The translations under genes were made by a program, and so were the position numbers. Of a stretch of 64,000 bases of DNA, positions 14,814 to 60,799 are shown one piece after another; position 1 is the stretch's first letter; each line of letters begins with the position of its first letter. Source of the DNA: an uncultured delta proteobacterium (GTDB lineage: Bacteria > Desulfobacterota > RBG-13-43-22); the NCBI GenBank assembly GCA_963802945.1, contig CAWDKY010000030.1:1-64000 (forward strand). The letters run 5' to 3'. Under the pieces are notes generated by a model. That model was not told the origin of the DNA. It was given only the letters and a program-made list of their open reading frames with translations, and searched no databases.

Positions 14814-14899
14814 GTCTCAATTTCGGAATTCGGAAATTTAGATAAAATTCTTTTCAGGTTTCGTAACGCCCTATAGAGCATGAGGAATTAACGCGAAAA

Positions 14900-14975
14900 T
14901 AGGATTCCGGGATTCGAGGGTTCAATCCCGCCGATGACGGGACTGGACCCCTTGAATCCTTAGTCCTCGAATTTT
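14900..14975. repeat. Degenerate 8-mer (ggattcga/gggttcaa) inverted-repeat element between pstS and pstC; a related element lies at about 40017..40112
   Basis: ggattccgggattcgagggttcaa ... cccttgaatccttagtcctcgaat. Confidence 0.5.
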
Positions 14976-15004
14976 TAATGTGGCATTGAAGCATTGTGGT
15001 TGGA

Positions 15005-15922
15005 ATGAAGGAAACAAACAACAACATTTGGGTCATTGACAAGTCCGAAAAACGATTTACGGATTTCCTATCTTTTTTCGCCTACGGAACCGTCGCCCTG
15101 CTCTTGGGTATTTTCATCACCTTGCTGATTCATGCCTGGTCGTCTATTAAGGTCTTCGGCCTTTCTTTTTTTGCCGGACGCCTCTGGAATCCGGTAATCA
15201 ATCAATTCGGAGCTCTGCCCTTTTTGGTGGGGACCTTGGTGACCTCTTTTCTATCGCTGCTTATCTCGATTCCTTTTTCTGTGGCCATCTCTGTTTTACT
15301 CGGCGAATATTATAAAGAAGGAGCTCTCTCCTCCTTCCTTAAAAGTTCTATAGAGGTTTTAGCCGGCATCCCCTCGGTAATCTATGGGTTGTGGGGCTTA
15401 TTTATTCTCATCCCCATCGTCAGGGCCATAGAGATCAAAATAGGTGTATCCGCCGAAGGCGTTGGATTGTTTTCTTCCTCGCTGATCCTGGCCATCATGG
15501 TCATTCCTTACGCAGCCTCTATTGGCCGGGAGGTCATTGCCCTGGCCCCAGCCGATCTTAAGGAGGCCGCCTATTCCCTCGGGGCCACACGCTATGAGGT
15601 CGTTAAGAAGATTGTCCTGCCCTATGCCCGCTCAGGGATCATTGCCGGTATTTTGCTCTCTCTCGGAAGGGCCCTGGGAGAAACCATGGCCGTGACCATG
15701 CTCATCGGCAACCGGAACGCCATTCCTCACAGCATCTTTGATCCGGCCAATACCATGGCCAGTGTCATCGCCAATGAATTTACCGAGGCCACTTTGGAGA
15801 TTTATGTCTCCTCATTGATCAATATCGCCCTGGTGCTGTTTCTGGTCACCATGGTGGTTAATCTCATCGGGACTTACATCATTAAGAAAGTCAGCATCGC
15901 TGCTGAGAGAGAAGTCACCTGA
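15005..15922 (+). CDS. pstC: Phosphate ABC permease PstC
   Basis: LAGIPSVIYGLWG, EAAYSLGAT, GRALGETMAV. Confidence 0.95.
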   Translation: MKETNNNIWVIDKSEKRFTDFLSFFAYGTVALLLGIFITLLIHAWSSIKVFGLSFFAGRLWNPVINQFGALPFLVGTLVTSFLSLLISIPFSVAISVLLGEYYKEGALSSFLKSSIEVLAGIPSVIYGLWGLFILIPIVRAIEIKIGVSAEGVGLFSSSLILAIMVIPYAASIGREVIALAPADLKEAAYSLGATRYEVVKKIVLPYARSGIIAGILLSLGRALGETMAVTMLIGNRNAIPHSIFDPANTMASVIANEFTEATLEIYVSSLINIALVLFLVTMVVNLIGTYIIKKVSIAAEREVT

Positions 15923-16767
15923 TGGAATCCAATACCTCCTGGCGCATTTTTAAAAATACTTTCTTTAAGGGGGCGATTATCCTTCTCTCTTTTCTTTCCA
16001 TCTCGCCCATGCTTCTGATCCTTTTCTATATCGGAAAAAACGGGATCGCTTCAATCAATTGGGCTTTCCTCACCCAAACGCCTCGGCCCATGGGAGAAAT
16101 AGGGGGCGGGGTTTTTAACGCCATTGTGGGCACCTTTGTTCTTATAATACTCTCCAGCCTTTTCTCCGTGCCTGTTGGGATAACCACGGGAATCTATCTT
16201 TCGGAAAAACGGGAGGGCGTCCTTTCGCGAACCGTAAAACTGTGTGTCGAAATCCTGCAAGGCACCCCCTCAATCGTCATCGGCATCATTGCCTATACCT
16301 GGATCGTGCGCCCCTTTAGGAGCTTTTCGGTTTTTTCCGGGGCCATAGCCCTGAGCATGATGATGGTCCCGGTCATCATCAAGTCCACTGAAGAGACCTT
16401 AAAACTCATCCCTTATCACCTGAAGGAGGCCTCCCTGGCCCTTGGGGTGCCTTATCACAGAACCATTCTAAAGGTGATCTTACCGGCCGGTCTCAGCGGC
16501 ATAGTGACCGGCATTCTGTTAAGTATTGCCCGTATCACCGGGGAAACCGCCCCCCTGCTTTTTACCTCCTTCGGTAATCCCTTCTTAAATTGGAATCTCT
16601 TTAAACCCATGGAGTCCTTACCCCACATCATTTTTTATTATGCTACCAGCCCCTATCCGGAATTTCACCAATTTGCCTGGGGGGCGTCTTTTCTTCTGGT
16701 CGGTCTGGTTCTGCTGTTTAATCTTACTGCTCGGAGAATCTCAAAAAGATGGAAGATCCAATTGTAA
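15922..16767 (+). CDS. pstA: Phosphate ABC permease PstA
   Basis: [26 protein letters not shown]. Confidence 0.95.
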
Positions 16768-17516
16768 ATGTCTTAAAAATTGAAAATTTTTCCGCCGGCT
16801 ACGGAGACAACCAGGTTTTGAAGGAGGTCAATCTTTCTATCGGCGACAATAGTGTCACGGCCCTGATGGGCCCTTCGGGTTGCGGTAAAACTACTATTAT
16901 CCGCTGCATCAATCGAATGCACGAACTGATTCCCGGAGCCAACATCGACGGAAAGATATATCTACGAAATAAAGATATCTACGCCATGCAGCCGATCGTG
17001 CTCAGAAGGAAAATCGGCATGGTCTTTCAAAAACCGAACCCCTTTCCCACCATGAGTATCTATGACAATGTCATCGCCGGCTATAAATTGAATGGGGTTC
17101 GTCTTCACCGATATGAAACAGAAGAAATTGTGGAACGATCCCTCCAAGGGGCGGCCTTATGGGAAGAGGTCAAGGATTTCCTCCACCGAAAGGGGACCTT
17201 TCTGTCCGGGGGCCAACAACAAAGGCTTTGCATCGCCCGGGCCCTGGCCATGAATCCGGAGATTTTGTTGCTGGATGAGCCGACTTCCGCTTTGGACCCG
17301 AAATCCACTTCTCATATAGAAGAATTGATTTCCGATTTGAAAAAAACCGTTACCATGCTCCTGGTGACCCACAACATTGCCCAGGCAGCGCGGGTTTCCG
17401 ATTTCACGGCCTTTATTTACTTGGGAGAAATGATTGAATACGGTTCGACCAATTCGATGTTCACCGTTCCCAAAGACAAGAGGACGGAAGAATACTTAAC
17501 CGGGAAATTTGGTTGA
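16749..17516 (+). CDS. pstB: Phosphate ABC ATPase PstB
   Basis: [36 protein letters not shown]. Confidence 0.95.
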
Positions 17517-17527
17517 TAGGGGGAAAA

Positions 17528-18181
17528 ATGTTAGAAGAAAAAAATGCCGAACTCAGGAAGACCTTGATTGGTTATGCCATCCTGGTCGAAAAAATGATCG
17601 ACGACAGCATTCAAGGTTTGATGAGAATCGACCAGAACTCGCTCCTCCAGGTCATCAAAGAGAGCGAGAAAAAGGCCAATGAGACGGAAATCGTGATCGA
17701 TGATCTGTGTATCACGATTATCGCCCAATTCGGGCCTAAGGCCAAAGACCTGAGGACCGTCTTGATGAGTCTGAAAATCAACAATGACCTGGAGCGGATT
17801 GCCGATTATGCTGTCAATACCTCGGAAAGCGGCCTTTTTCTTATTACCCAACCCTTGGTCAAACCTTTATTGGATATCCCCAGGATGGCCGAGGCCACGA
17901 TCGACATGCTCCGAGACGCCGTCAGCGCCTTTGTCAATGAAGACCCGGATATGGCCGCCAGCGTCTGCAATAGAGATCATGTTGTGGATGAATTGGCTTC
18001 CCAGATTTTAAGGGAACTGATCACCTACATGATTGCCGACCCGTCAACCATCGAACGTGCCCTTCACCTGTTAAAAATAGCCCGTAATTTAGAACGCACC
18101 GCGGATCTTTCCACCAATATCTCCGAGGATGTGATTTACATGATTGAAGGTAAAGTGGTCAAACACGCCGATTCGGTTTAA
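17528..18181 (+). CDS. phoU: Phosphate signalling protein PhoU
   Basis: P.AKDLR, DLERIAD, LERTAD..TNISE repeated PhoU motifs. Confidence 0.95.
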   Translation: MLEEKNAELRKTLIGYAILVEKMIDDSIQGLMRIDQNSLLQVIKESEKKANETEIVIDDLCITIIAQFGPKAKDLRTVLMSLKINNDLERIADYAVNTSESGLFLITQPLVKPLLDIPRMAEATIDMLRDAVSAFVNEDPDMAASVCNRDHVVDELASQILRELITYMIADPSTIERALHLLKIARNLERTADLSTNISEDVIYMIEGKVVKHADSV

Positions 18182-23353: not shown

Positions 23354-23649
23354 ATAGTTTAAGGATGGCGGAACGACAGTAAATCTACATTGGTTAAAGT
23401 TTTTAATTGGCTAAGGATTATGGGAACAATTATCAAAACCTTCATTCATTAGGTTAGCGCCAAAGACTTATCTTTCTATTTTTCTTATTGATTTAATCTT
23501 TTCTTCTGTTTTATAATCTTTTTAAATAATACCCGACCCTATCAATCAAAGCCGGACTTTGGTTTTTTATTTCCTTCTACAACGCTCGGGCTTTGGCTGT
23601 ATCAAGGGTGGCTTCTTACAAAACCCAGGCAGGAGAGTCAGGAGGGAGC

Positions 23650-23976
23650 ATGCCCTATTACATAGCGGATACACCAGGCCGGTTGAGGATTGAAAGTCCT
23701 GTGCTGAAAAACAATCAACAGAAGTGCGCGGCCTTTCAGGAATTTTTGAAAGGCATTAGCGGTGTAACCTCGGTCAACATGAAATCTGAGTTGGGAAGTG
23801 CCACCGTACACTATGACCCTAAGGTCCTTGATCACACCAAGCTTATCGGGCTGCTTGAAAAGACTGGTGAGTTCGACCACTTTCAGGCCAAGACACCGGA
23901 TGATTATTTAGAGGAGGCCATAGAGGATGTTGCCAAGGTGGCCCTCGATGCTGTTTCGGACGGACTGAAGGAATAG
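23650..23976 (+). CDS. HMA2-domain (Cys-less HMA-like) protein
   Basis: SD GGAGG; YIADTPGRLRI, GVTSV, GSATVHYD. Confidence 0.75.
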   Translation: MPYYIADTPGRLRIESPVLKNNQQKCAAFQEFLKGISGVTSVNMKSELGSATVHYDPKVLDHTKLIGLLEKTGEFDHFQAKTPDDYLEEAIEDVAKVALDAVSDGLKE

Positions 23977-24004
23977 TTTCGCAAGGTTTAACTCAAAATT
24001 CATT

Positions 24005-24577
24005 TCAGGTAATTTTCCCCCGACGCCGATATCGCTTATGCATCCAGACCAAAACCCATAAGACCGAGAGCCCTATGAAAATTCCCATCTGCAGTTTTTT
24101 AATTTCCGGCAGGAAAACGTGAATGGTTTCGCCGAAGAGATAGCCCCCACCGGCCACAAGGATTGACCAGACCATGGCACTGAGCCCGTTGAGTATCATA
24201 AATCTTCCGGTCTTAATGTCCCGGTCCATGCCGAGGATCAAGGGAGTCACCAATCGAAATCCGTATAAAAACCGGAATCCCAAAATGATTAAATTATGAT
24301 GTCCTTTAAGGAGTTGGTGGATCCTTTCCACCTTGATCTGCCATTTTTTATGCCGATTTATTAAAAGACGCCCCTTATATCGTCCTAAAAAGAAAAACAT
24401 CTGGTCTCCGGAAAAACTCCCGATGAAGGCCATGAGCACAACAAAAGGTAAATTCAAATATCCCCAGAAGGAAACCATCCCGGCAATGAGGAGAATGGTC
24501 TCCCCCTCAACGATGGTTCCCAGGGCTATGGCCGGATATCCATAGTTCTCGATTATTTGTTCGAAAACGATATTCAC
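24005..24577 (-). CDS. DedA family membrane protein
   Basis: YGY.A...G...EGET, GD..FF.LGR, RFLYG.R. Confidence 0.85.
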   Translation of the reverse strand: MNIVFEQIIENYGYPAIALGTIVEGETILLIAGMVSFWGYLNLPFVVLMAFIGSFSGDQMFFFLGRYKGRLLINRHKKWQIKVERIHQLLKGHHNLIILGFRFLYGFRLVTPLILGMDRDIKTGRFMILNGLSAMVWSILVAGGGYLFGETIHVFLPEIKKLQMGIFIGLSVLWVLVWMHKRYRRRGKIT

Positions 24578-24661
24578 CTCCAGTGCATGGCTGCAATGAG
24601 AATGCCGATTATTAACAAAATGGACAACAGGATCTCTTCTATTATTTTTTTCGAAAACATT

Positions 24662-25069
24662 TTACGCTTCCTGTACATTTTTAGGTGAAAATACAATGGC
24701 TAGAGTGCGAATAATCCCCACCACCAAAAGGAGGCAGGATAGAGACAAAATCTCCCCCGTGGCCATTTTACTCTGATATAAACCGATCATAATTTCCCGA
24801 AGGATAAAAACCATGGCGCCGTCAATGATAAAGGTAATTCTAATCCGATGGATCTCAAAATACTCGATAAGGCTGCGGAGGAGTTCCATGATAATAAACA
24901 AGGACAGAATATTAGTGACCAAGAGGTTTAAGCCGGATTGAATGGTCGGGCTTCTAAATATCTCTCTCAAGTCCAGGCATATCTTGGCCATGCCCAGCAT
25001 CACGGCCAGAATGATAAAGGGAATCATCAATTTAATAAGAATATCTAAGGCCTTTTTAAATAAATTCAT
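24662..25069 (-). CDS. Phosphate-starvation-inducible PsiE family membrane protein
   Basis: Four TM helices, ELLRSLIEYF, F.LREIMI; TGTTCAT-n4-TTGTAAC Pho-like site at 25092..25109. Confidence 0.75.
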   Translation of the reverse strand: MNLFKKALDILIKLMIPFIILAVMLGMAKICLDLREIFRSPTIQSGLNLLVTNILSLFIIMELLRSLIEYFEIHRIRITFIIDGAMVFILREIMIGLYQSKMATGEILSLSCLLLVVGIIRTLAIVFSPKNVQEA

Positions 25070-25288
25070 AGGCGGACTATAGAAGATGCAGGTTACAAAC
25101 AGATGAACAAAAAATAGTTTTTTGCAGAAGAGTTTTATTAATAGGAAAGTAATGAAAAATTGAATAGATTTATCTGGAACAAGGAATACAATAATTAAGT
25201 TTAGCCATAAAGCATAATAAAAATTGCTTCAACCTATTGCGATCGATGACCTACGTCTTTTTTTATTAAAAATAATATAAACACCCTA

Positions 25289-25329
25289 TTGACATTCTTA
25301 ATATTAGGCTTAAAATAATAATCCTAATA
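25289..25329 (+). promoter_or_regulatory. Sigma70-like promoter overlapped by an inverted repeat
   Basis: TTGACA (25289), TAAAAT (25311); TATTAGG-n14-CCTAATA (25302..25329). Confidence 0.5.
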
Positions 25330-25362
25330 AGTAAGGAGCAAATTCAAATCAGAGGTGGGATT

Positions 25363-25659
25363 ATGGCGATTTTTGAAGGATGGAAAGGAAATATTTTGGG
25401 AGGAATGGCTATTGGGATCGGTGCCTCGGTGGTTGGACCGGTGGTGATACCCATCTTGGCCACCGTCGTCAAACCCCTGACCAAGGCGGCTATCAAAGGC
25501 GGTTATTTACTTTATGAAAAAGGAAGAGAGACCTTGTCCGAGGCCCAAGAAGTAATTGAAGATCTGGTCGCCGAGACCAAAGCCGAAATAGAAGGGGCCC
25601 AAGAAGCCCCTTCACCCTCAGATGTTTCAGCGTCTGTGGCCGATCCTCCGAAAAAATAA
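25363..25659 (+). CDS. DUF5132-like small membrane protein (GxxxG-rich, FezA-like)
   Basis: GGMAIGIG hydrophobic N-terminus, KPLTKAAIKGG, EDLVAETKAE. Confidence 0.75.
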   Translation: MAIFEGWKGNILGGMAIGIGASVVGPVVIPILATVVKPLTKAAIKGGYLLYEKGRETLSEAQEVIEDLVAETKAEIEGAQEAPSPSDVSASVADPPKK

Positions 25660-25667
25660 AAAAGTCC

Positions 25668-26144
25668 ATGTGGGATCTCCCTGAAGATACTTATCTCAGT
25701 CATGTCTCTAAAGGAAGGCTACGTTTAAGAATACCTTCGAAAAAAAGGGATGTTGCCTTTTTTGCTCAACTTCAAGCTGCCCTTTCCCCTATTCCAGGCC
25801 TTGATCAAATCAAAGTAAACCCCTTGAGCGGCAGTCTCCTCATCCTCCATAGCGAACTTCCCGAGGAAGTGTCCTCTTTTGTTAAAGACTTGGCCGATCC
25901 CGCTCCAAAAAGAAATGCCAACGATAAACCAAACAGCATTTTTCAGAGGTTTACAGGGACATTTCGTCAAGTAAATACTCAAATACAAGGATTTACTAAG
26001 GGTGAATTGGATATCCCGACGTTAAGTTTTATTGCCCTTTTAGTCGTGGGAATCTACCAGATCAGTCGGAAAAATTTTACAGCCCCGGCCTGGTACACGG
26101 CTTTTTGGTATGCCCTGAATATTTTTTTGAAATCCAAGGAATGA
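25668..26144 (+). CDS. HMA2-domain membrane protein (FezC-like)
   Basis: HVSKGRLRLR, NPLSGSLLILH, C-terminal TM region with PAWYTAFWYA. Confidence 0.75.
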   Translation: MWDLPEDTYLSHVSKGRLRLRIPSKKRDVAFFAQLQAALSPIPGLDQIKVNPLSGSLLILHSELPEEVSSFVKDLADPAPKRNANDKPNSIFQRFTGTFRQVNTQIQGFTKGELDIPTLSFIALLVVGIYQISRKNFTAPAWYTAFWYALNIFLKSKE

Positions 26145-26259
26145 TGGATCGATAAAAAACGCTATTACCTAAGGTGGAAATCTGGGAGGGGCCAGCACCA
26201 AAAAACATCAAATTCCTTTTTTCAAAGGAGTGGTCTTTAAACAACGGCCAGGAGGAACC

Positions 26260-26991
26260 ATGCCTTTAAAAAAAGATAACAAACCAATTCCAAAAAAAGT
26301 TAAACCCAATAAACCAATTATAAGGAGGCCGATTATGCCGAACAAAACAGGACAAGAAACCACGCCTGAAAGCCAAGGCATGGGGAAAGTAGGAACCAGC
26401 ATTAAGGACGGAGTGGTCAGCAGCTTGAAGGGAATCAACGAGATCGAGGCTGAAATCGTCAGCCTGGTGCGCAACACCGTTTCAACCACGCTTCGAGCTT
26501 CCGGAACAATAGCCGGCGAAAGTTTAAACGTCGCCAAAGAAGTGATTAAGGGGGCCATTCAGGGCACCGAAGAAGTGGGCACAGGTCTTATCCTGAGCAC
26601 AAAAAGTGTGGCCAAGGGATTGGTCATGGGGATCAGTGATGTGGGTGGAGACGTGGTCTCCATAGCCGGACAGACCGTCAAGGGGGCTGTCAAAGGCGCT
26701 TCCGAAATTGGAGCCGATGTGGGTCTGGTGGCCAGAAGGACGGTGGACGGCGTCATTGAAGCCACCAAAGAGATCGGCGGAAATGTGGAAGAGGTCGCTA
26801 AGGTGGCTGTCGGGGGGGCCATAGAAGCAGCCGGGACCATCGGGACTATGGCCGTCCGCTCGGTAAAGGATATGTTGGTCGGTGTGGCCGAAGGGGTTAA
26901 AGAAGTGGCCTCCAGTTTACTCCCCAAATCCAAACCGGATAATGCATCCGAACTCAACGAACGTTCCAAACGAAAAAGCGGAGATTTTTAA
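26260..26991 (+). CDS. Gly/Val/Ala-rich protein made of 22-residue amphipathic repeats
   Basis: At least seven exact 22-aa registers; SD-preceded ATGs at 26260 and 26335. Confidence 0.8.
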   Translation: MPLKKDNKPIPKKVKPNKPIIRRPIMPNKTGQETTPESQGMGKVGTSIKDGVVSSLKGINEIEAEIVSLVRNTVSTTLRASGTIAGESLNVAKEVIKGAIQGTEEVGTGLILSTKSVAKGLVMGISDVGGDVVSIAGQTVKGAVKGASEIGADVGLVARRTVDGVIEATKEIGGNVEEVAKVAVGGAIEAAGTIGTMAVRSVKDMLVGVAEGVKEVASSLLPKSKPDNASELNERSKRKSGDF

Positions 26992-26994
26992 CCT

Positions 26995-29900
26995 TTGGTT
27001 CGAACGATTCATGCCGCGGTAAAAGGAAGGGTGCGTTATCGGGTTGACGGCCTTTATCGTTCCAGGGCGTTAAAAAAAGTTTTGGAAGACCGATTTGCCG
27101 AAAAGGATGGGATCACCGCCTTTTCGGCAAATTTTTTAACCGGTCATGTCATAGTTTACTTTAATCCCAGTCTGAACTCCTCAACCATCACCCTGCTTAT
27201 AAATGAAACCGTCGAGAGCTTTTATCAGGGGAATGGGCATAAAAAGGGGATTATTCGCAAAGAATCCTTTTATGAAACTTTCTTTGCTGACGCCCCGTCA
27301 AGACCTTCAAAGGCACATGTTTTTTCATCATCCGCCCGACCCAAAACTCCGATCCCCGGCAAGGGGAAAACCCGGCGACTGGTCCTTCGCGGCGCTGATC
27401 AAAGGATAGAACCTTGGCACCTTCAATCCGCCGAATCCCTGTTAGTCGAAATGGGCATTCAGCCGCAGGCAGGGCTTTCCGATATGGCGGTGAAGGAAAG
27501 ACAAAAAAAGTATGGGCCGAATATCCTCCCTGAAGCCGTGCCCCGTTCCGGATTCAGTCTGTTCATTGATCAATTCAAGTCCCTTCCCGTGGCCTTATTG
27601 GGCGTGGCGGCCGGTATTTCAGTGGCCACCGGTGGACTGGTTGATGCCGTTGTCATCCTTTCAGTCGTTGTTATTAATGCCGTCATAGGGTACGTCACCG
27701 AAAGTCGAGCGGAAAAAACTATCCATTCTTTAAAGAACCTGGTCCGTCCTATGGCTTTGGTACTCAGGGAAGGATCGGTTCAAATTATAGGGACCCAGGA
27801 GGTGGTGCCGGGTGATCTTCTGGTCCTCCAGCCCGGAAGTTATGTGGCGGCCGATGCCCGGCTCATCGAGGTCTCCCGGCTAAGTGTGGACGAGTCAGTC
27901 CTCACCGGAGAGAGCTTCCCGGGCATAAAGTCCACAGGACCACTATTAGACCTTCAAATACCCCTGGCTGATAGGACCAACATGGTCTATATGGGCACCC
28001 TGGTAATCGGCGGCCAGGGTTTGGCTTTAACGGTGGCTACGGGAAAATATACGGAAATCGGAAAAATTCAGGTCCTGGTGGGAGAGGCCCTTCCTCCGGA
28101 AACCCCCATGGAAAAGCAATTGGATCGGATGGGAGGTCAACTGGTCACCATTTCCTTAGCCGTCTGCGGTCTGGTGTTTGTTATCGGGCTCTTGCGGGGT
28201 TATGGTCTATTACAGATGTTGAAGAATTCCATCGCCCTGGCTGTGGCCGCCGTACCGGAAGGGTTGCCTATGGTAGCTACCACGACTTTGGCCTTGGGCC
28301 TTCGTCGGATGAAAGAGTATAAAGTCTTGATTCGTCATTTGGGTGCGGTGGAGACCTTGGGCTCGGTTCAAACCATCTGCATGGATAAGACCGGAACCAT
28401 TACCATGAATCATATGTCGGTCAAGGCCGTCTACGTAGGGATGGAGACCCTTCAGGTGACCCAGGGTCGATTTCTCAAGGGGAAAGAACCGGTTGATCCC
28501 TATGACCGGCAGGACCTTTTACAACTGATCCATATCGGGGTCCTTTGCAATGAAAGCGAAATCGAAAAAAGAGGATATAAGGAAGGTTCTTTACAAAAGG
28601 ATCAAGCGGAGGTTAAAGGCAATGGGCTCTCTGTCGGGCAGTTCGGGAATTATGTGGTCAGCGGCTCCCCTACGGAAAACGCCTTAATCCATATGGCCAT
28701 TAGTGCCGGGATCAATCTAGAGGACCTGAGGACAAAATTTTCTACCCTTCAAACCAGGTATCGTTCCGAACAGCAGAATTTTATGATTACCCTTCATAAA
28801 ACGACCCAGGAAGGTCGTCAGGTGATAGCCGTTAAAGGCAGTCCCGCTGAAGTCCTGGCTCTTTGCCAATGGCAGAAAAAGGATGGCCACCAAATCCTCC
28901 TGACCGATGAAGATCGTCTGCGTATTGAGATGGAAAATGAGCAGATGGCAGGCCATGCCTTAAGGGTTTTGGGAATGGCCTATTTGTCCTTGGAGATGAG
29001 AGACTTTGGTTGTCCCGGACTCTGCGGATCTTCAAGACAAGCTGATCTGGCTGGGTTTAGTGGGCATGGGCGACCCGATTCGGTCTGGTGTCAAAGAATT
29101 GGTCAAGGACTTCCACCTGGCCGGCATTGATACGGTAATGATTACCGGGGACCAGACCTCCACCGCCTATGCCATCGGTAAAGAGTTGAATCTCAGTCCG
29201 GATGAAGAATTGCAGATCCTGGATTCGACTCATATTGATGAGATGGACCCGGAGGTGCTCCAAGCCCTGGCCGAAAAGGTCCATGTCTTTGCCCGGGTCA
29301 GTCCGTCGCATAAATTACAGATCGTCCAGGCCATGCAAAAGAAGGGGAAGGTCGTGGCCATGACCGGGGATGGAATTAACGACGGGCCGGCCTTGAAGGT
29401 AGCCGATATCGGGGTGGCCATGGGGCATAGCGGTACCGATGTGGCCCGCGAAGTGGCCGATGTGGTTTTGGAAGATGATCATTTAGAAACCATGTTAATC
29501 GCCGTCCGCCAAGGAAGGACCATTTATAATAATATTAGAAAATCGCTTCATTTTCTCCTTTCCACCAACATGAGTGAAATCATGGTGGTCTTTGCGGCCA
29601 CCACCGGAGGACTCGGTCACCCGCTGAACGCCAGGCAACTTCTTTGGATTAATTTGATCAGCGATATTTTCCCGGGACTGGCTTTGGCCTTGGAAGCCCC
29701 GGAACCGGATGTCCTGACCTACCCTCCCAGAAACCCTGAAGAACCGATTATCCGAAAACAGGACTTTAAAAGGGCTTTTTTTGGAATCATCTGTTCTATC
29801 CGCAGGAACCTTGGGCGTTTATGGGTACGGACTGGCTCGTTACGGACAGGGTCCCCAGGCCAATACCCTGGCTTTTATGACCTTGAGTTGCAGTCAGCTT

Positions 29901-30152
29901 CTCCACGCCTATAGCTGCCGCTCCGAAACCCATTCCCTTTTTAGTTCGGAAAAGCTCCCCTCCAATCGATTATTGAACCTGGCCGTCGTCGGTTCGTTGG
30001 TTGTTCAAGTCGGCACCTTGATCATCCCCGGGATGCGAGGTCTCTTGGGACTCAGCCCTCTCACCGCCTTTGAGGGCCTGCTCGTGGGGGGAGCCAGTTT
30101 TTTACCCCTTCTGATCAATGAATCCACCAAATCCACAGGGAAAAAACAATGA
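26995..30152 (+). CDS. P-type ATPase, P2A (Ca2+-type) signature, with N-terminal HMA2 domain; frameshifts near 29000 and 29780
   Basis: IHAAVKGRVRY...ANFLTG (HMA2), YGPN, TGES, VPEGLP, DKTGT, KGSP, TGD, GDGIND, STNMSE, WINLISD, QLLH. Confidence 0.85.
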
Positions 30153-31360
30153 AAAAAGATTTCATCTTTACCTCTGAATCGGTCACTGAAGGACATCCGG
30201 ACAAATTGTGCGATCAAATCAGCGATGCCATTGTCGATCAATTTTTACAGCAGGATCCCTATGCCCGGGTCATTGCCGAGTGCGCGGTGGCCACGGCCAT
30301 CGTCTTCATTGCCGCCAGGTTTAATGCCGATGCCTCGGTTGATTTTTCCGCCTTGGCTCGAAATGTCATCAATCAGATCGGGTATAATCAGCAGGGATTT
30401 AACGGAAGAAGTTGCAGTATTGTCACCAGTCTAAAAGAAATGAACCTTCGCAACGAATCCCGCTTTGATGAGAGAACCATGCCGGAAGAGGAAATGGATC
30501 ACATCCTGATTAAAAATCAGGTGACCCTTTTTGGTTTCGCTTGTAACCAGACTCTTACCCTGATGCCGTTGCCCATCTGGTTGGCCCATAAGCTGGCCAG
30601 AAAGCTGACCTCCGTCCGGCTTCAACGGACCCTTTCTTATTTAGAACCGGATGGAAAAACCCAGGTGGCGGTGGAATTTCGGCAGGGGAAACCTTATCGA
30701 ATCCATAGTATCACCCTTATCGCCAGTCAAACCAAGGCGCCTCAATCGGGAGGGCCTACGCTTAAAGGCCTGGAGGACGACCTCAGAGAATTGGTCATTG
30801 CCCCGGTTTTTAAAGACGAAAAAATTATTCCTGATGAGAAGACGAGAATCTTTGTCAACCCGGACGGACCTTTCATTATGGGAGGGCCTTCTATTCATTC
30901 CGGTTTGACAGGAAGAAAAAATGCCATCGACACCTATGGAGAATATGCCCGTCAAAGCGGGGCCGCTCTGAGTGGGAAGGACCCATTGCGTATCGACAGG
31001 ATAGGCGCTTATGCCGCCAGGTATGCGGCCAAAAATATCGTGGCCGCCGGTCTGGCCGAGGAATGCGAAGTTCAACTCAGTTATTCCATTGGTTTTGCTC
31101 GCCCCGTGAGCATTCAAGTGGAAACTTTCGGCACCGGTAAGGTTTCCGAAGATAAGATAGTCGAACTTTTGGGAGATTATTTTGATTTTCGATTGGCCGG
31201 GATTTTGAAGCAATTCAATTTAAGATATCTGCCTTTAATCCTCAAAGGGGGATTTTATAGGAAGCTGGCCGCTTACGGCCATATGGGGCGGATGGACATC
31301 GGCCTTCCCTGGGAATTGACGGATAAGGCACGGGCGCTCAAGGCAGCGGTCGGATTTTAG
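30149..31360 (+). CDS. metK: S-adenosylmethionine synthetase (divergent copy)
   Basis: FTSESVTEGHPDK, PDGKTQV, GLTGRK, SGKD, AAYGHMGR; ATGA overlap with the ATPase. Confidence 0.9.
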   Translation: MKKDFIFTSESVTEGHPDKLCDQISDAIVDQFLQQDPYARVIAECAVATAIVFIAARFNADASVDFSALARNVINQIGYNQQGFNGRSCSIVTSLKEMNLRNESRFDERTMPEEEMDHILIKNQVTLFGFACNQTLTLMPLPIWLAHKLARKLTSVRLQRTLSYLEPDGKTQVAVEFRQGKPYRIHSITLIASQTKAPQSGGPTLKGLEDDLRELVIAPVFKDEKIIPDEKTRIFVNPDGPFIMGGPSIHSGLTGRKNAIDTYGEYARQSGAALSGKDPLRIDRIGAYAARYAAKNIVAAGLAEECEVQLSYSIGFARPVSIQVETFGTGKVSEDKIVELLGDYFDFRLAGILKQFNLRYLPLILKGGFYRKLAAYGHMGRMDIGLPWELTDKARALKAAVGF

Positions 31361-31420: not shown

Positions 31421-31902
31421 TTATACCAGGACCGATAAAATCGAAAGAGGGGTCCCTTCTAGGGCCAGACCGACAAAAGAGCCGAATACGGCATCCCAGA
31501 CCAGATGGCCTATCTTCGAGGTAACCCCATTTATATATTGATCATTGGTCTGGGCCTTGTCCACCTTAAAATAACTGGAATTTTCCAATGCCGAATACGG
31601 CATCCCAGACCAGATGGCCTATCTTCGAGGCAGCCCCATGTATATATTGATCATTGGTCTGGGCCTTGTCCGACTTTAAAATAACCGGAATTTTCCAATA
31701 CAGTTATAATGGACCGCTCATGAACGGTTTTATGATCATAGTTGACCACGATACTCCCGGTCAAGGTATTGGCCGATGTCTTGGTAACTCCGGCATGTTG
31801 ATTCAAGAGACTCTCCACGTCAGAAGCCTTTTCCTGATTCCCTTTAACCAGAGGAGTCTTAATCCGTAACCTTCCGGGTATGCTGTGAATGAAATAGTTC
31901 AT
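31421..31902 (-). pseudogene. HMA2-domain protein disrupted by a ~109-bp internal tandem duplication and frameshift
   Basis: MNYFIHSIPGRLRIK; 31481..31589 is repeated at 31590..31699; C-terminus GLALEGTPLSILSVLV matches the 39491 copy. Confidence 0.7.
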
Positions 31903-33907: not shown

Positions 33908-35023
33908 CTATGGGCGTTCCAGTGGTCCGACTGTATTGAGTGCTGATAGGGTTTTCTCCGTGACATTGTCCGGCAGCCGGACGTATCCAAGCTGAGGGGC
34001 GTATTTCTGGCCTTCCTGCAGGCACCATTGGAATAGATCTCGGATGGACTTGGCTATTATGGGGTCCGGGTAATGCTTGTAGAGCAGGATCCAGCTAAAG
34101 GTGACGATAGGGTAGGAATCCGGTCCGGTTGGATCCGGGATGAAGACTCGCAGGTTCTCAGGCATTTCGGCCGTAGCTAAGGCGATTGTGCAACTCTGCT
34201 CCGTAGGCTTGACGAATTTCCCTTCCTTGTTTTCGAGAACTGCCGATTTCAGCCCCAGTTTGTGAGCGAACTCATAACTCACATAGCCGATTGAGCCGAT
34301 GGACTGGTTGATCCGTGCGGCGACGCCCTCATTGCCTTTGGCCCGCATGGCGTTACCGGGCCAATTCACCAGAGTGGCCGGACCATGCTGAGAACGCCAC
34401 TTTTCGCTGACAGCGTCGAGGTGTTTAGTAAAGGCATAGGTCGTGCCGCTACTGTCCTGACGCACGACAGTGGCGATGGAAAGCTTCGGGAGCTTTAGGC
34501 CCGGATTAGTCCTGGCAATGGCCGGGTCGTTCCAATTCTTGATCTCCCCTTGAAATATACCGGTATAAGCCTTACGTGAGAGCTTGAGATCCTCCGTCAG
34601 GTCGGGGAGGTTGTAAGCGAGTACTACACTACCGGCCGTGAGGGGCAACAAGACCACGCCGGTGGAGACCTTCCCCATATCCTCGTCCTTCATGGCGGCA
34701 TCGCTGGCCCCGAAATCCACCCGCTCCTCTTCTTTGACATTCTTCCCGATGAACCGCCGGATGCCTTCTCCACTGCCGACGCCGTCGTAGGTGATGACCG
34801 TCTTGGGGTGATCATTATGATAGACCTCAAACCAGCGTTTGTAGAGCCAGGAAGGAAAGGTAGCCCCGGCGCCACGCAAAAGAACACCGCCGGATGGGAC
34901 TTTAACCTTCTCTTTATTGCCATCCTGCGAAGAGCAGCCATGAAGACCCATCAGAAGAACTAAGATGGCCGTCAAAAGCACAGTACCTCTCAAAACCGTA
35001 TATATCGCTTTATAGACTCGCAT
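33908..35023 (-). CDS. pstS: PstS (second binding protein of set 2, probable lipoprotein)
   Basis: LHGC lipobox-like, GAGATFP, DFGASD, RQDSSGTT. Confidence 0.9.
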   Translation of the reverse strand: MRVYKAIYTVLRGTVLLTAILVLLMGLHGCSSQDGNKEKVKVPSGGVLLRGAGATFPSWLYKRWFEVYHNDHPKTVITYDGVGSGEGIRRFIGKNVKEEERVDFGASDAAMKDEDMGKVSTGVVLLPLTAGSVVLAYNLPDLTEDLKLSRKAYTGIFQGEIKNWNDPAIARTNPGLKLPKLSIATVVRQDSSGTTYAFTKHLDAVSEKWRSQHGPATLVNWPGNAMRAKGNEGVAARINQSIGSIGYVSYEFAHKLGLKSAVLENKEGKFVKPTEQSCTIALATAEMPENLRVFIPDPTGPDSYPIVTFSWILLYKHYPDPIIAKSIRDLFQWCLQEGQKYAPQLGYVRLPDNVTEKTLSALNTVGPLERP

Positions 35024-35150
35024 AGTGTTTTCTCTCTTCTTTGGATAAGAATATCAACCCCACTCCTGTTGGCCTTGACAAATGCTGAAGAACACCCGGC
35101 GGGGAGAAGCGGTGACCCGCCGGGGCTTCAGGGCGCGCAGAAGTTGCTCG

Positions 35151-36005
35151 TTAGCTGAACTGACCCTTGATATAGTCTTTGGTGTACTGTTCTTTGGGAT
35201 CATGAAATATTTGTTCGGATTGGCCGAATTCAACCAGGTAACCGCACCTGCCGCCGTCCGAGGTGTCTACATACATGAACCCGGTGTTATCGGCGACACG
35301 CTGCGCCTGCTGCAGGTTATGAGTGACAATGGCAATCGTGTAGCGGGTCTTCAGTTCGACCATGAGTTCTTCGATCTTGCGGGTGGCGATAGGGTCGAGG
35401 GCCGAGCAGGGCTCATCCATGAGGAGCACTTCCGGTTCCGTGGCGATGGCCCTGGCAATACAGAGTCGCTGCTGCTGACCTCCGGATAGCGAAAGACCGC
35501 TCTTGTGCAGTTTGTCCTTGACTTCATCCCACAGCACGGCGCGTTTCAAAGCCTCTTCCACCTTTTCAGCGACCGGCCCCTTATAGCGGTTCAGCCTCAA
35601 GCCGAAGGCCACGTTATGATAAACGCTCATGGCGAATGGGTTAGGCTGTTGAAAGACCATGCCGATAAAGCGCCGCACCGCAGTGGCATCTACGGACGGG
35701 TGATAGATATCCTGGCCTCGAAAGTGCACATGACCTTTGAACCGAAAACCCCTCACCAGGTCGTTCATCCGATTCAGGCAGCGTAAAACCGTGCTTTTCC
35801 CGCACCCTGACGGTCCGATAAAGGCCGTGATTCTATTCTTCTTGACCGGAATAGAGGTGTCTCTAACGGCCTTGAAGGTGCTGTAGTAAAGCTCTTTTAT
35901 ATTGCAGTCGATGACAAAGCCATCACTCTCGGTCGCTTTGACCGACCCTTCTGAGGGTTCAGTCCGGCCGTTCGATGGTTCGTCTTTCTTGGTTGCAGTT
36001 TTCAT
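35151..36005 (-). CDS. pstB: PstB (set 2)
   Basis: [30 protein letters not shown]. Confidence 0.95.
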
Positions 36006-36017
36006 GTCTTGTTTCTC

Positions 36018-36980
36018 CTATTCGTAAATCTGGCGGCGTGAAAAGGCTTGCCCAATAAGATTGGTGGCCAACACCAGCAATACGAGCACCAGTGCGGCGA
36101 CCCAGGCCAGTTCCACCTGATTCTCAAAGGGCATACTGGCGAAGTTGTAGATGAGCACCGCTAACGACGCCGTCGGTTGTTTAAGGTCGAATCCTCCTCG
36201 GAAAAGCCAGTAGTTGCTGAAAAGGGCCGTGAAAAGTAACGGCGCCGTTTCGCCGGCGGCGCGAGCTATGGCTAACATGATGCCGGTGAGAATACCGGGC
36301 ATGGCTGTGGGCAGAAGGACCATCCAGGTGGTCTGCGTGGGAGTCGCTCCCATCCCGATTGAGGCTTCCCGCATTTTCGCCGGGACCATACGAATGGCGT
36401 CTTCAGCGGTCAGCATGATGGTCGGCAGCATCAGAATAGAAAGGGCGACACCCCCGGCGATCGCCGAGTAACCGCCGAAAGTCAACACCAGGACGCCGTA
36501 AGCGAACACACCGGCCAGGATAGATGGAAATCCGGTGAGGACCTTGGCCGCGAACCTGACCGCACCGGCCAGCGGGCTCTCCGATCTGGACTGGGCCAAA
36601 TAGACAGCGCTCAGAATACCGATGGGAATACTAATCAAGGCTGCGAGGACGACCATGATCAGTGTGCCGAGTATGGCGTTACCGAACCCTCCGCCTTGCT
36701 CCATGGGCGCGGGAGGCAGTTGAGTGAAGACGTCGAAGCTGAGCCGCTGACCGCCACGCCATAACAGCATCAAGACCACGGAGAACAGAGGGATCAGGGC
36801 CAGCAATGTCATTGCCGATACCAGCGAACTCAAAAGCAGGTCAATTAACGTACGGGGTCGCCGGAGAGACTTCTCCAGCTCTGAGAAGTTTACGTCCGCA
36901 AACAGGTCGACCTCAGGCCCAACGAGACCGGGGGGAACAGGTGTGACTCCCGGATTCGTGACGGTATCCGGTAAGGTCAT
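36018..36980 (-). CDS. pstA: PstA (set 2)
   Basis: [21 protein letters not shown]. Confidence 0.95.
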   Translation of the reverse strand: MTLPDTVTNPGVTPVPPGLVGPEVDLFADVNFSELEKSLRRPRTLIDLLLSSLVSAMTLLALIPLFSVVLMLLWRGGQRLSFDVFTQLPPAPMEQGGGFGNAILGTLIMVVLAALISIPIGILSAVYLAQSRSESPLAGAVRFAAKVLTGFPSILAGVFAYGVLVLTFGGYSAIAGGVALSILMLPTIMLTAEDAIRMVPAKMREASIGMGATPTQTTWMVLLPTAMPGILTGIMLAIARAAGETAPLLFTALFSNYWLFRGGFDLKQPTASLAVLIYNFASMPFENQVELAWVAALVLVLLVLATNLIGQAFSRRQIYE

Positions 36981-37999
36981 TATTTTCCTCCTTCCTGTCC
37001 GGCTGAGGCCCGTTGAAGAATGACCGAACCAACGATATTGACAAACAGTGTAATCGCCAGGAGGACCAGTGCGGCATACATCAGCACACCCACGTCCTTT
37101 TTGGCCGCTTCAGGAAAATTGTTGGCCAGGAGCGCCGCCAGAGTGTTGGCTGGTGAAAACAAAGAAACACTGATACGGTTGGCATTACCAACGAGCATGG
37201 CCAGGGCCATTGTCTCCCCTAAAGCACGTCCAAAGGCCAGGATCACTGCCCCGACAATACCACGCGAAGCGGTAGGGAGAATAACCGCCAGAATGGTCTC
37301 CCAACGTGTTGCGCCCATGCCGTAGGCAGCCATCCGAAGCTTTGAAGGTACCGAAACCAGGACGTCACGGCTGATAGCCGTAATGGTTGGAAGAATCATG
37401 ATCGATAGGACAAGAACGGCCGGAAGCACCCCAGGCCCGGTCAATGTGGTGCCGAAGAGGGGGATCCATCCGAGTTTCAAGTTGAGCCAGTTGCAGGCCG
37501 GCCGTATAAGCGGGATGATCACATACAAACCCCATAACCCGTAAACGACGCTGGGGATGGCAGCCAGCAGTTCGATCAAGTTCTTAAGCAGGGCCTCCAC
37601 CCGGTCGGGCAGTTTACCCAGCTTCGGATGGAACTGAAGTCCGAAAGCCTTCAAGGCTCGAAATACACTTTGGGCGAGGAACCCTTCGCTGAGGAAAATG
37701 GCTGCGGCCACACCGAAGGCCGTACCTATGAGCAAGGCCAGGAAAGAGGTGTAGAGTGTCCCAAAGATTTCCGGTAGGATCCCGAACTGTCCTGTGTTGG
37801 GGTCCCAGGTGGTACCGGTTAGAAATCCAAACCCGAACTTCCGCATTGCGGGCACGGCATTCATAACGATCTCCAGCACAATGAATGCCACTATGAGGAC
37901 CGACAGCCAGGCGAACCCGTAGCACAGCCAACGAAAAGAGGTATCCGCTATCTGTTGGGAACGGGTCGGTGGCCGTGAGATCTGTTCTATATCAAACAT
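36980..37999 (-). CDS. pstC: PstC (set 2)
   Basis: LAAIPSVVYGLWG, GRALGETMA. Confidence 0.95.
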   Translation of the reverse strand: MFDIEQISRPPTRSQQIADTSFRWLCYGFAWLSVLIVAFIVLEIVMNAVPAMRKFGFGFLTGTTWDPNTGQFGILPEIFGTLYTSFLALLIGTAFGVAAAIFLSEGFLAQSVFRALKAFGLQFHPKLGKLPDRVEALLKNLIELLAAIPSVVYGLWGLYVIIPLIRPACNWLNLKLGWIPLFGTTLTGPGVLPAVLVLSIMILPTITAISRDVLVSVPSKLRMAAYGMGATRWETILAVILPTASRGIVGAVILAFGRALGETMALAMLVGNANRISVSLFSPANTLAALLANNFPEAAKKDVGVLMYAALVLLAITLFVNIVGSVILQRASAGQEGGK

Positions 38000-38102
38000 G
38001 ATTGCACCTTCTTCAGTCGCCCCCTGCCTGGGAGCCGCCCTTGTTATTCTTTTACATACTCAATATCGGTCTGCGCTTGCAATGCCAGTTGACGCCCGGC
38101 TG

Positions 38103-39125
38103 TTACTTAATGTTCTGGAGGGCAGCAAGCACCTTTTCGCTTACAGGCTTCGGCAGCGGGATGTATCCAAGAGGCTCAGCATCCTTCTGCCCTTCGGTCA
38201 GGACATATTTCAAAAGGTCGTGGAGTACCGCGGTTTTCTTTTTGTCCGGGTAGTTCTTGTAAAGAACAAGCCAGGTATATGTGACAATAGGATAGGCATC
38301 CTTGGCCTCAGGATCGGAGATCCAGGCAATCAGATCGTTGGGTATCTTGGCCGAAGCCAAAGCTGCCTGACCGGAGGCCGGAGTCGCCGTGATGTACTTA
38401 CCGGACTTATTCTCCAGGATGACTGTGGAGAGCTTTTGGCTCTTGGCATAGCCGTACTCAACGTAGCCGATGGACCCTGGCGTGGTCTTGATACTGGCAG
38501 TGACTCCTTCATTGCCCTTGGAACGGGTTCCCGCCGGCCAGTTCGGCATCTTATTGGTGCCGGGGCTCTTGGCGAAGTCCGGACTGATGACACTCAGATG
38601 CTTGGTGAATACGTAGGTCGTACCGCTGCTGTCGGCTCGCACGATCAAGTTAATTGGCGCGTCGGGAAGTTTAACCCCGGGGTTGGTATGGGCGATCAAA
38701 GGATCGTTCCACTTTTTGATCTTGCCCAAAAAGATGTCGGCGTAGGCCTTCCGCGACAATTTCAACTCAGTCACGCCCGCTATATTATAGGCCAGCACGA
38801 TGCTGCCGGCGGTCACAGGGAGACACTGCACCCCGGCTGCGACCTGAGACATCTCCTCCGGCGTCATAGCGGCGTCACTGGCGCCAAAGTCCACGGTTTT
38901 GTCCATGAAGCTCTTAACCCCGCTACCGCTGCCGACCGATTGGTAGTCGATCTGTACATTATTGTGTGACCCGCTGTAGGTTTTGAACCATTTGAAGTAA
39001 AGCGGGGCAGGAAAACTTGCCCCTGCACCCTGCAACTTGACGAGATCGGCGGCTTGGCCCCAGGCGGTGAAATCCAAGACAATTACCGCAACCCAAATAA
39101 TCGAACTCCAACGAGCAAACTTCAT
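38103..39125 (-). CDS. pstS: PstS (set 2)
   Basis: Signal peptide, GAGASFP, DFGASD, RADSSGTT; SD AGGAG. Confidence 0.95.
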   Translation of the reverse strand: MKFARWSSIIWVAVIVLDFTAWGQAADLVKLQGAGASFPAPLYFKWFKTYSGSHNNVQIDYQSVGSGSGVKSFMDKTVDFGASDAAMTPEEMSQVAAGVQCLPVTAGSIVLAYNIAGVTELKLSRKAYADIFLGKIKKWNDPLIAHTNPGVKLPDAPINLIVRADSSGTTYVFTKHLSVISPDFAKSPGTNKMPNWPAGTRSKGNEGVTASIKTTPGSIGYVEYGYAKSQKLSTVILENKSGKYITATPASGQAALASAKIPNDLIAWISDPEAKDAYPIVTYTWLVLYKNYPDKKKTAVLHDLLKYVLTEGQKDAEPLGYIPLPKPVSEKVLAALQNIK

Positions 39126-39301
39126 GTCAATTCTCCTTTCATATGGCTCTGTCAATAATAGTGATTTGCGTGCCTATCATAAATAATCAGTATGGCTGTC
39201 GTGCTCGTGGCCCGAGCAGCGGTTAAACAATTTTTCATAAACACCGCATCCTGAAGAAAAGCTAATCACCTTTCCCAACTTATTTAAATATCATACCCAT
39301 T

Positions 39302-39490: not shown

Positions 39491-39862
39491 TTATACCAGG
39501 ATCGATAAAATCGAAAGAGGGGTCCCTTCCAGGGCCAGGCCGACAAAGGAGCCGATTACGGCATCCCAGAGCAATTTCCCAACCCTGGAGGCGGCACTGT
39601 GGATATATTGGTCGTTGGTCATGGCCTTGTCTGTTTTAAAATAACCGGCATTTTCCAATAGGTTTATGATCGATTGCTCGCTGACGGTCTTATGATCATA
39701 ATTGACCACGACACTCCCGGTCAACGGGTTGACCGAGGTCTTGGTGACTCCGGCAGATCTATTCAACAGAAATTCCACATCAGAGGCTTTTTCCTGATTT
39801 CCTTTAACCAAAGGGGACTTAATTCTTAACCTGCCGGGTATGCTGTGCATATAATAGCTCAT
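39491..39862 (-). CDS. HMA2-domain protein with C-terminal hydrophobic helices (intact copy)
   Basis: HSIPGRLRIK, NPLTGSVVVNYD; SD AGGAGG; Pho array at 39950..39989. Confidence 0.85.
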   Translation of the reverse strand: MSYYMHSIPGRLRIKSPLVKGNQEKASDVEFLLNRSAGVTKTSVNPLTGSVVVNYDHKTVSEQSIINLLENAGYFKTDKAMTNDQYIHSAASRVGKLLWDAVIGSFVGLALEGTPLSILSILV

Positions 39863-49107: not shown

Positions 49108-49124
49108 TTTCTCCTTCCAGATAA

Positions 49125-60798: not shown

Positions 60799-60799
60799 A

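Follow-up and report, generated by a model that had tools for sequence, protein, structure and literature searches.

Why does a pump with the ligands of SERCA stand among helper proteins that resemble those of ferrosomes, and why is its gene followed directly by one annotated in databases as MetK, the S-adenosylmethionine (SAM) synthetase? The question is raised by a five-gene cassette at positions 25289-31360 of the window analyzed here, a stretch of 64,000 nucleotides (nt) from an uncultured delta proteobacterium (contig CAWDKY010000030.1) whose positions serve as coordinates throughout; G000 denotes the source genome and L numbers denote related loci. A preliminary description, made from the sequence letters, had seen five closely spaced, co-oriented genes here, and all were located on the + strand, encoding a DUF5132 protein, an HMA_2-membrane protein, a protein of 22-residue repeats, a P-type ATPase and a MetK-like protein. 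That description took the set for a candidate ferrosome-like mineral-storage compartment. In our preferred reading, to which we give a probability of roughly 45%, the cassette would instead form a scaffolded Ca2+ (possibly Mn2+) export platform in the cytoplasmic membrane, with a partner that hydrolyzes or senses triphosphate. Export platform and compartment differ only in the destination of the pumped ion.

The pump and the MetK-like protein

Judged by its synteny, the cassette is a genuine operon that is conserved over several bacterial phyla. A query with the MetK-like protein gave 274 relatives, from which the best 80 loci were taken; they belong to Thermodesulfobacteriota, Nitrospirota, Cyanobacteriota, Pseudomonadota and others, and the closest relative carries the label Thermodesulfobacteriota. 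A survey of gene neighborhoods, suggested in the preliminary description, placed the pump directly upstream of the MetK-like gene across phyla, ending ≤700 nt before it in 78 of the 80 loci; in one of the remaining two the pump lies at 823 nt, and in the other the contig is too short. The helpers are patchier. Among the 41 non-cyanobacterial loci with sufficient flank, DUF5132 is found in 37, the HMA_2-membrane protein in 32 and the repeat protein in 33, with all five genes in 31 and the exact order in 10, and in the 20 cyanobacterial loci DUF5132 lies near the pump in 5 and the repeat protein in none. The fixed core is therefore the pump with the MetK-like protein, to which the scaffold is usually attached. 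Pairwise identities of the two core proteins correlate with r 0.92 over 63 loci, although kin among these are not independent.

The pump gene (26995..30152, + strand) is read in three frames in this assembly, and the two frameshifts that the preliminary description had announced could be placed near 28996 (a GA repeat) and at 29772-29783 (a T run) by alignment with the intact 1066-aa orthologs of the closest relatives, L001-L003. It carries the SERCA-like motifs first noted, VPEGLP, STNMSE and WINLISD, together with a Gln in M8, and these align to SERCA N768, E771, N796, T799, D800 and E908. In all 63 full-length homologs the M4 Glu (which we take to be E309 in SERCA numbering), the Asn and Glu of M5, the Asn and Asp of M6 and the Gln and His of M8 are invariant, so that E309, N768, E771, N796 and D800 have their equivalents in 63/63 and the E908 position is Gln; the T799 position is Ser or Thr in 62/63. 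Also invariant are the N-terminal H6, R12 and R14 and a Glu in M7 that is without a SERCA equivalent. The best solved relatives are SPCA1 (closest), LMCA1 and SERCA, and the top NCBIfam models are both P2A, with MgtA-type models scoring far lower.

Trees (FastTree and a 14-row IQ-TREE) put the pump among P2 pumps, apart from P1B, with support 100; the cassette pump clade itself has support of only 66/80 in the 14-row IQ-TREE. In the phylogeny check that the preliminary description had called for, a forced grouping of the pump with FezB and FezH was rejected (14-row IQ-TREE, p-AU 4e-70), and the P1B-6 motifs D[Y/F]SCA and HNxxT are absent from the protein. By its ligands and its place in the trees, the pump is thus P2A (SERCA/SPCA-like) with a nearly full SERCA two-site ligand set, and the cassette is not a ferrosome. 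As a search of G000 turned up neither a Na/Ca nor a Ca/H exchanger family, this pump is the only Ca-type exporter seen there. Its N-terminal HMA_2 match, at 27.3 bits, falls slightly below the cut-off of 30; His6, Arg12 and Arg14 agree with the CoBaHMA signature (PMC8890360) and also with the FezB R-rich motif (bioRxiv 10.1101/2020.01.10.902569). Two relatives show other arrangements: L064 has a second CoBaHMA-P2 pump 3′ of its MetK-like gene (L064:7694-10747), with an M4 that lacks the PEGL glutamate, and L121 in genome G077 (L121:5132-9150) has DUF5132, HMA_2-membrane and CoBaHMA-P2A genes without a MetK-like gene, its pump branching outside the MetK-linked clade.

The last gene (30149..31360, + strand) overlaps the pump gene by ATGA and encodes a protein of the MetK fold with all three MetK domains (Pfam). 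The preliminary description had called it MetK, and the protein passes the TIGR01034 cut-off and carries that name in databases. Fold and overlap stand, but the methionine ligands are lost, and a canonical metK (~41% identity) is found on contig C25 of G000, as one is in 5/5 other carrier genomes tested. E55, Q98, D238 and K269 (E. coli numbering) are the methionine ligands of MetK (PMC3853416; PMC8727953), and in the window copy they read E55R, Q98M, D238H and K269R. Across 79 full-length homologs from the related loci, every copy has His at D238 and Arg at K269; the E55 position holds Arg in 72 and Glu in none, and Q98 is kept in 1. A second set, the best 120 of 7980 profile hits, which may overlap the first, has E55R, D238H and K269R in 120/120, although these replacement counts are partly circular because the hits were ranked by a profile of the variants.

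The triphosphate and metal site is retained. H14, D16, K17, E42, K245, K265 and D271 are invariant in the 79, and the triphosphate/Mg/K ligands H14, D16, E42, K165, R244, K245, K265 and D271 are found in 77-79/79 and in 119-120/120 of the second set (we take D16, E42, K165, K245, K265 and D271 to have the roles known from MetK). The variants form one clade with support 100. As read from its residues, then, the MetK-like protein has lost the methionine ligands and kept the triphosphate and metal site. Of the human enzyme, the variant Asp258Gly and those at Lys289 no longer synthesize SAM but still act as phosphatases (PMC6850014; PMC3793261); with an offset of 20, human Asp258 and Lys289 are E. 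coli D238 and K269. We infer that the MetK-like protein hydrolyzes or senses triphosphate and has acquired a new anion pocket. An AF2 model of the monomer (pLDDT 88) was set aside because the active site needs a dimer.

The distribution of the variant can also be followed in 301 genomes of the phylum. DUF5132 is present in 28 of these, and a variant-MetK pattern occurs in 41, of which 24, in listed matches read by eye, have the His-Ser-Gly form; 23 of those 24 are DUF5132 genomes. The other 17 are at chance level, a reversed pattern being found in 18 genomes.

The DUF5132 and HMA_2 scaffold and the repeat protein

The first gene (25363..25659, + strand) encodes a FezA/PacL-like DUF5132 protein (Pfam PF17195, E 9e-13) which has the GxxxG character claimed for it, with two such motifs, one N-terminal hydrophobic helix (Kyte-Doolittle 2.14) and an acidic helix, predicted to be cytoplasmic, with conserved E60, E63, D67, E71 and E75. 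At E≤0.001, Pfam matched it to DUF5132 only, leaving the PacL families DUF1490 and DUF6110 unmatched. The second gene (25668..26144, + strand) was rightly described as an HMA domain joined to a membrane segment: its product is a Cys-free HMA_2 (CoBaHMA) protein (PF19991, E 2.5e-17) with a C-terminal hydrophobic segment, the architecture of FezC.

For comparison with fez we used one true cluster, L117, located via a weak DUF5132 match in the phylum survey; it has a FezB with DYSCA and HNxxT, a FezH-type pump and, by reading, a gene resembling feoA. The DUF5132 profile matches the small GxxxG gene beside fezB in L117 with E 3.8e-7 among 169 open reading frames (ORFs), against E 0.19 for its best reversed control and E≥0.15 for all reversed controls. 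The HMA_2 profile matches the N-terminus of FezB (E 1.8e-7), a stand-alone R-rich fez protein (E 0.0013) and also the N-terminus of FezH. The profile matches thus support shared ancestry of the cassette helpers and Fez parts, pairing DUF5132 with the GxxxG protein of a true fez cluster and the HMA_2 domains with its R-rich domains, and they bear out the earlier claim that a fez-type accessory scaffold is used here with another class of pump. A DNA pattern, D[Y/F]SCA, for counting fezB in the 301 genomes was too loose (276/301) and was discarded; no FezB was found in G000.

From the same homology the preliminary description had gone on to a possible compartment, and here the evidence divides. 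In five cyanobacterial genomes, what follows DUF5132 is an R-rich P1B pump, an HMA-less P2A pump or the cassette itself. PacL and Ctp of mycobacteria form patches in the plasma membrane, in which the acidic repeats of PacL bind the N-terminal domain of the pump (PMC13043812). The homology to fez stands, but a scaffold that is shared with PacL effluxosomes and with other pumps is no sufficient sign of a compartment, and in the light of these associations DUF5132 is a general pump chaperone or scaffold and not an organelle marker. The acidic face of DUF5132 and the basic patch of the pump suggest a contact of the PacL type. A predicted complex of the DUF5132 helix with the CoBaHMA domain of the pump scored 0.32 against 0.02 for the best control, with 100% contact agreement between runs and partner pLDDT ≥69. 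This score is weak: in calibration, passes at ≤0.60 came to 18 of 157 solved pairs, and 2 of 215 mismatches passed, both at ≤0.60.

Further variants of the scaffold were seen in cyanobacteria. A conserved cluster near dnaA (L158:8643-14636, L162:9177-15613, L165:4805-11123) looks like a further fez-like module, with two HMA_2 proteins, an R-rich P1B pump (DFATG motif), DUF5132 and an HMA_2-membrane gene. The gene immediately before the pump in Chlorogloeopsis fritschii PCC 6912 is a natural fusion that joins a DUF5132-like segment to the membrane portion of the HMA_2-membrane protein (L160:9828-10397).

The third gene (26230..26991, + strand, with its true start probably at ATG 26260 or 26335) encodes a soluble protein. 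The repeat of 22 residues seen at first holds, with a self-identity of 0.245 at lag 22 and of 0.213 at lag 44. The protein has no transmembrane segment, and of its 8 predicted helices 5 are amphipathic (p≤0.034). Its place in a ferrosome-like set fares less well, as it is missing from the fez locus L117, where its profile found no match, and from the 20 cyanobacterial loci. Neither Pfam nor NCBIfam has a family for it and the Atlas gave unnamed clusters only; it makes a family of its own, with 937 representatives at E≤0.001, and 42 of 150 listed relatives, when scanned, had only stray weak matches or unrelated fused domains. The AF2 model is an alpha-solenoid (pLDDT 70.7) whose fold matches are mostly designed helical repeats, natural chains reaching Z≤9.2, and a folded adaptor fits this predicted structure better than a lipid-coating protein. 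Kinship with calcyanin was considered and rejected: both have a 22-residue period, but the profile gave -8.7 bits, below shuffled sequences, and hhalign a probability of 0.15. The calcyanin-like protein beside cax in Fischerella muscicola PCC 7414 (L171:99-1172) has its 22-residue period in the N-terminal part (0.315 at lag 22); the Fischerella ccyA megaplasmid was not among the matches listed in a plasmid search.

Regulation and the competing explanations

The regulatory region begins near 25142, 5′ of the cassette start at 25289 given earlier. A conserved element distinct from the Pho box, TAGG-N-AAGTAATGAA (25142..25156, + strand), lies 8 nt before the -35-like hexamer (25165-25170) of a sigma-70 promoter-like site, whose -10-like hexamer is at 25187-25192. 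Derived from 33 cassette promoters, the motif recurs in 14 of them and stands before 12 of 2577 background genes of G000; in 1.37 Mb of loci, 13 of 15 hits precede cassette genes. Its spacing to the -35 hexamer is fixed. The copy at 25142-25156 is the only strict one in G000. The strict form is found in 6 of 27 cassette genomes and in 0 of 31 others; four of the hits had been used for training, a new one lies before a further DUF5132 gene, and one has no cassette gene behind it. The simplest reading is a putative site for a dedicated activator, and no regulator gene common to the motif-bearing loci was found. A second, near-consensus sigma-70 promoter-like site (25289..25316, + strand) is the best of the region with 11 of 12 consensus matches; promoter-like sites in the region (8) are not above shuffles (8.7). 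No riboswitch or other RNA of Rfam matched at gathering score in the window.

On the export reading, the pump would remove Ca2+ from the cytosol; its ligands are those found in the sequence and its direction would be that of the P2A family, whose pumps move Ca2+ out of the cytosol. DUF5132 would oligomerize through its GxxxG helix, as its homology and the weak model suggest, and its acidic helix would hold the CoBaHMA domains of pump and HMA_2 helpers alike by their basic His/Arg patch, stabilizing and clustering the pump as PacL does for P1B pumps. Beside the pump, the MetK-like protein would hydrolyze or sense tripolyphosphate, short polyphosphate or ATP. Tying Ca2+ removal to phosphate flux in this way would lessen Ca-phosphate precipitation while the neighboring Pst importers run. 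The helical-repeat protein may serve as an optional soluble adaptor, and the activator at 25142-25156 would switch the operon on.

Several observations weigh against this proposal. Compared with the two-gene pacL-ctp operons the cluster has more members, among them a FezC-like protein, which favors a compartment. Both top NCBIfam models of the pump, TIGR01522 and TIGR01116, stay under cut-off, with a P2A score of 632 against 798. Invariance of the M7 Glu and of the M8 His could point to a different ion or to a counter-ion. F230, the adenine-stacking Phe of MetK, is kept in only 38 of the 79 MetK-like homologs, so adenosine binding is uncertain. A fusion of pump and MetK as a Rosetta stone was sought and not obtained: 120 listed proteins held no full-length fusion and only 3 single chimeras, each without part of the pump. 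MntP, at 32404 in the window and of a family with genes in 10 of the 80 loci, hints at Mn2+.

The link to phosphate is also indirect. The window is indeed a phosphate-starvation island, as first described, with phoB/phoR-like genes, several pst clusters, phoU, phoH and psiE, but no Pho box was found at the cassette promoter. With a matrix built from only 5 Pho-box-like sites, this promoter scores 4.3 bits, under the 90th background percentile of 5.6, and of 28 orthologous cassette promoters 4 are at or above the 95th percentile. The same matrix gives 8.4-13.5 bits for stand-alone HMA_2 genes, psiE and mntP. The phosphate link of the cassette rests on its neighborhood.

The foremost alternative, which we hold to be rather less likely, is a calcium counterpart of the ferrosome, in which a lipid-bounded compartment would bud, the P2A pump would fill its lumen with Ca2+ and the MetK-like protein would supply or release phosphate for a Ca-phosphate store; this is the compartment first proposed, now with the altered MetK-like protein included. 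All of the FezA-like protein, the FezC-like protein and the R-rich pump head are present and homologous to a true fez cluster, and three such genes encode proteins enriched on the ferrosomes of D. magneticus (bioRxiv 10.1101/2020.01.10.902569). FezH-like R-rich P1B pumps, with ACPCA or a similar motif and a C-terminal His motif, directly adjoin the cassette in four loci (L003:9425-11632, L024:11461-13761, L118:12021-14276 and L123:65-2254). In Microcystis, DUF5132 and CoBaHMA genes flank the Ca-carbonate marker ccyA and are co-expressed with it (bioRxiv 10.1101/2024.07.07.602159), and two carriers of the cassette have inclusions, of Ca (carbonate) in F. muscicola PCC 7414 and rich in Ca and P in C. 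fritschii PCC 6912 (PMC8890360). G000 also has an H+-pyrophosphatase (H+-PPase) gene.

Weighing on the other side, the scaffold also builds patches that are not organelles, and G000, 100% complete by markers, yielded neither PPK1 nor PPK2, nor a calcyanin-like gene by tblastn with one F. muscicola query that was identified by context, beside cax. Only 5 of the 20 cyanobacterial loci retain DUF5132 near the pump, most helpers being lost there; no glycine-zipper calcyanin was seen in ten cyanobacterial regions read. The Ca inclusions of those strains are, besides, already tied to ccyA or polyphosphate. In its fullest form the compartment would be a third kind of encoded mineral organelle, a SERCA-filled Ca-phosphate store with a ferrosome scaffold, a MetK-derived (tri)polyphosphate enzyme, no polyphosphate kinases and its own activator, and this we hold to be slightly less likely again.

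That the MetK-like protein is a new adenosyl-transferase seems improbable. Its cationic pocket (Arg, His, Arg) would take an anionic nucleophile instead of methionine, and the product, a small molecule or a signal, might regulate the pump or supply the island's phosphorus-free lipid pathways. The catalytic His14, Asp163, Lys165 and Glu42 are kept in 120/120 and the replacements are invariant, not random (again in the partly circular set), and lipid-remodeling genes are frequent neighbors. No partner enzyme is conserved, however, the pump being the sole constant neighbor, and the adenine-stacking Phe varies in the more diverse set of 79.

Still less probable is relief from Mn2+ or Mg2+ rather than Ca2+, offsetting metal that enters with phosphate. 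SPCA1, the closest solved relative, is a Ca2+/Mn2+ pump, and to the MntP genes can be added CorA in 4 and MgtE in 3 of the 80 loci. But cassette pumps without exception have the M5 Asn and Glu that belong to SERCA site I and are missing from SPCA1, the MgtA-type models score far lower, and G000 has separate MgtA-like pumps.

Decay of the cassette in the source strain, with the pump a pseudogene, can scarcely be upheld: the two frameshifts, a duplication-broken HMA_2 neighbor and two truncated paralogous cassettes on contigs C15 and C28 speak for it, but both breaks are simple-repeat insertions, the rest of the pump is ~88% identical to an intact ortholog and has no in-frame stops, and assembly or sequencing error is likely because other genes of G000 are split likewise (the H+-PPase, an MgtA-like gene on C37 and the acyltransferase at 20243).

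Neighboring genes and comparison with known systems

The truncated cassettes of G000 (C28:179613-181360 and C15:555-3509) have DUF5132, HMA_2-membrane and repeat genes ~86% identical to those of the window. In the C15 copy the actuator domain of the pump runs into the last 159 MetK-like residues, which are 99% identical to the window copy; it may reflect either decay or misassembly. The deletion chimeras P0001, P0002 and P0031 resemble it.

Upstream of the cassette (23593..25069) lie three satellites assigned by Pfam, a stand-alone HMA_2 gene (+ strand) and DedA/VTT and PsiE-family genes (- strand), the latter two divergent from the cassette. Downstream and convergent (31421..31902, - strand) is another stand-alone HMA_2 gene (Pfam), broken by a 109-nt imperfect duplication; in L002 and L003 an intact ortholog of 123 aa comes after the MetK-like gene. 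The upstream Pho-box-like site of the window gene reaches 13.5 bits, where the 99th background percentile is 10.5. Four stand-alone HMA_2 (CoBaHMA) genes in all are spread across the island (23593-23976, 31421-31902, 39491-39862 and 55061-55405), three with Pho-box-like sites and similar upstream DNA and two matching the FezB N-terminus. The 64 kb hold at least three pst clusters with four PstS-family genes (13767-18181, 33908-39155 and 58132-61588). Among the 80 loci, Pho, DedA, MntP and glycosyltransferase genes recur (DedA-like genes in 11), and no Feo or Fur cluster was found among neighbors recurring in ≥3 of them. Elsewhere in the window, 44609-49847 carries Lgt-like and phosphatidylserine-decarboxylase-like genes and an 812-aa orphan in one operon, plus DUF3047, and two long ORFs (55829-57232, 467 aa, and 7253-8140, 295 aa) have no Pfam or NCBIfam match.

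Among the papers listed in our literature searches we found none that describes the cassette or the MetK clade, although the supplements of the ferrosome and Microcystis papers could list some of the proteins; a Methylococcaceae preprint, in the portion available, mentions no ATPase. The CoBaHMA paper of Gaschignard (2024) is said to list P-type ATPase fusions, and the pump architecture may already be in print there.

Among the nearest known systems, the ferrosome operon fez (FezA, the P1B-6 pump FezB, FezC, FezH; Grant and Komeili) resembles the cassette in build, with a GxxxG membrane protein, a similar operon layout, anaerobic hosts and HMA domains that are R-rich and Cys-free and occur at the head of the pump as well as in separate proteins, membrane-bound and soluble. 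The cassette differs in its P2A pump, which has ten-helix Ca ligands and lacks D[Y/F]SCA and HNxxT; in its setting, among phosphate-starvation genes and without Feo or ferritin-like neighbors; and in its additional MetK-like and helical-repeat proteins. With the PacL/Ctp effluxosomes of mycobacteria (DUF1490, DUF6110; PMC13043812) it shares a small membrane protein of one helix that has a Gly motif and an acidic helix in the cytoplasm and whose gene precedes that of a P-type pump; in mycobacteria PacL binds the N-terminal domain of this pump. Theirs, however, are P1B Zn/Cd pumps in two-gene operons, whereas the cassette has a P2A pump and three more conserved partners. The ccyA neighborhood of Microcystis aeruginosa PCC 7806 (Bruley et al., bioRxiv 10.1101/2024.07.07.602159) likewise sets DUF5132 and CoBaHMA genes beside a Ca transporter, but that transporter is a CAX antiporter and calcyanin is central, and neither was found in G000. 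Pumps of the LMCA1/YloB type, SERCA and SPCA1 have the same transport-site residues, domain order and tree position, and the cassette pump stands apart by its N-terminal CoBaHMA domain, its invariant M7 Glu, its own clade and its fixed operon partners. MetK itself (E. coli, PDB 1FUG/1RG9; TIGR01034) shares fold and triphosphate/Mg/K ligands with the MetK-like protein, which differs in four replaced methionine ligands, a separate clade, the presence of a canonical metK in addition to it in the 6 genomes checked and its position directly behind a pump.

A widespread MetK clade, annotated as SAM synthetase in the databases consulted, probably does other chemistry, and neofunctionalization of so conserved an enzyme would surprise specialists. 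Because cultured carriers exist (Nostoc, Fischerella, Chlorogloeopsis, Azotobacter), the origin of bacterial Ca- and P-rich inclusions is directly testable. In all, the cassette would act like a ferrosome or effluxosome module and yet belongs to neither, since the pump that defines each is absent. With it the FezA/PacL-plus-CoBaHMA scaffold, familiar from transition-metal pumps, is extended to one of SERCA type, which suggests that ferrosomes, effluxosomes and the helpers at the side of calcyanin are versions of one modular design.

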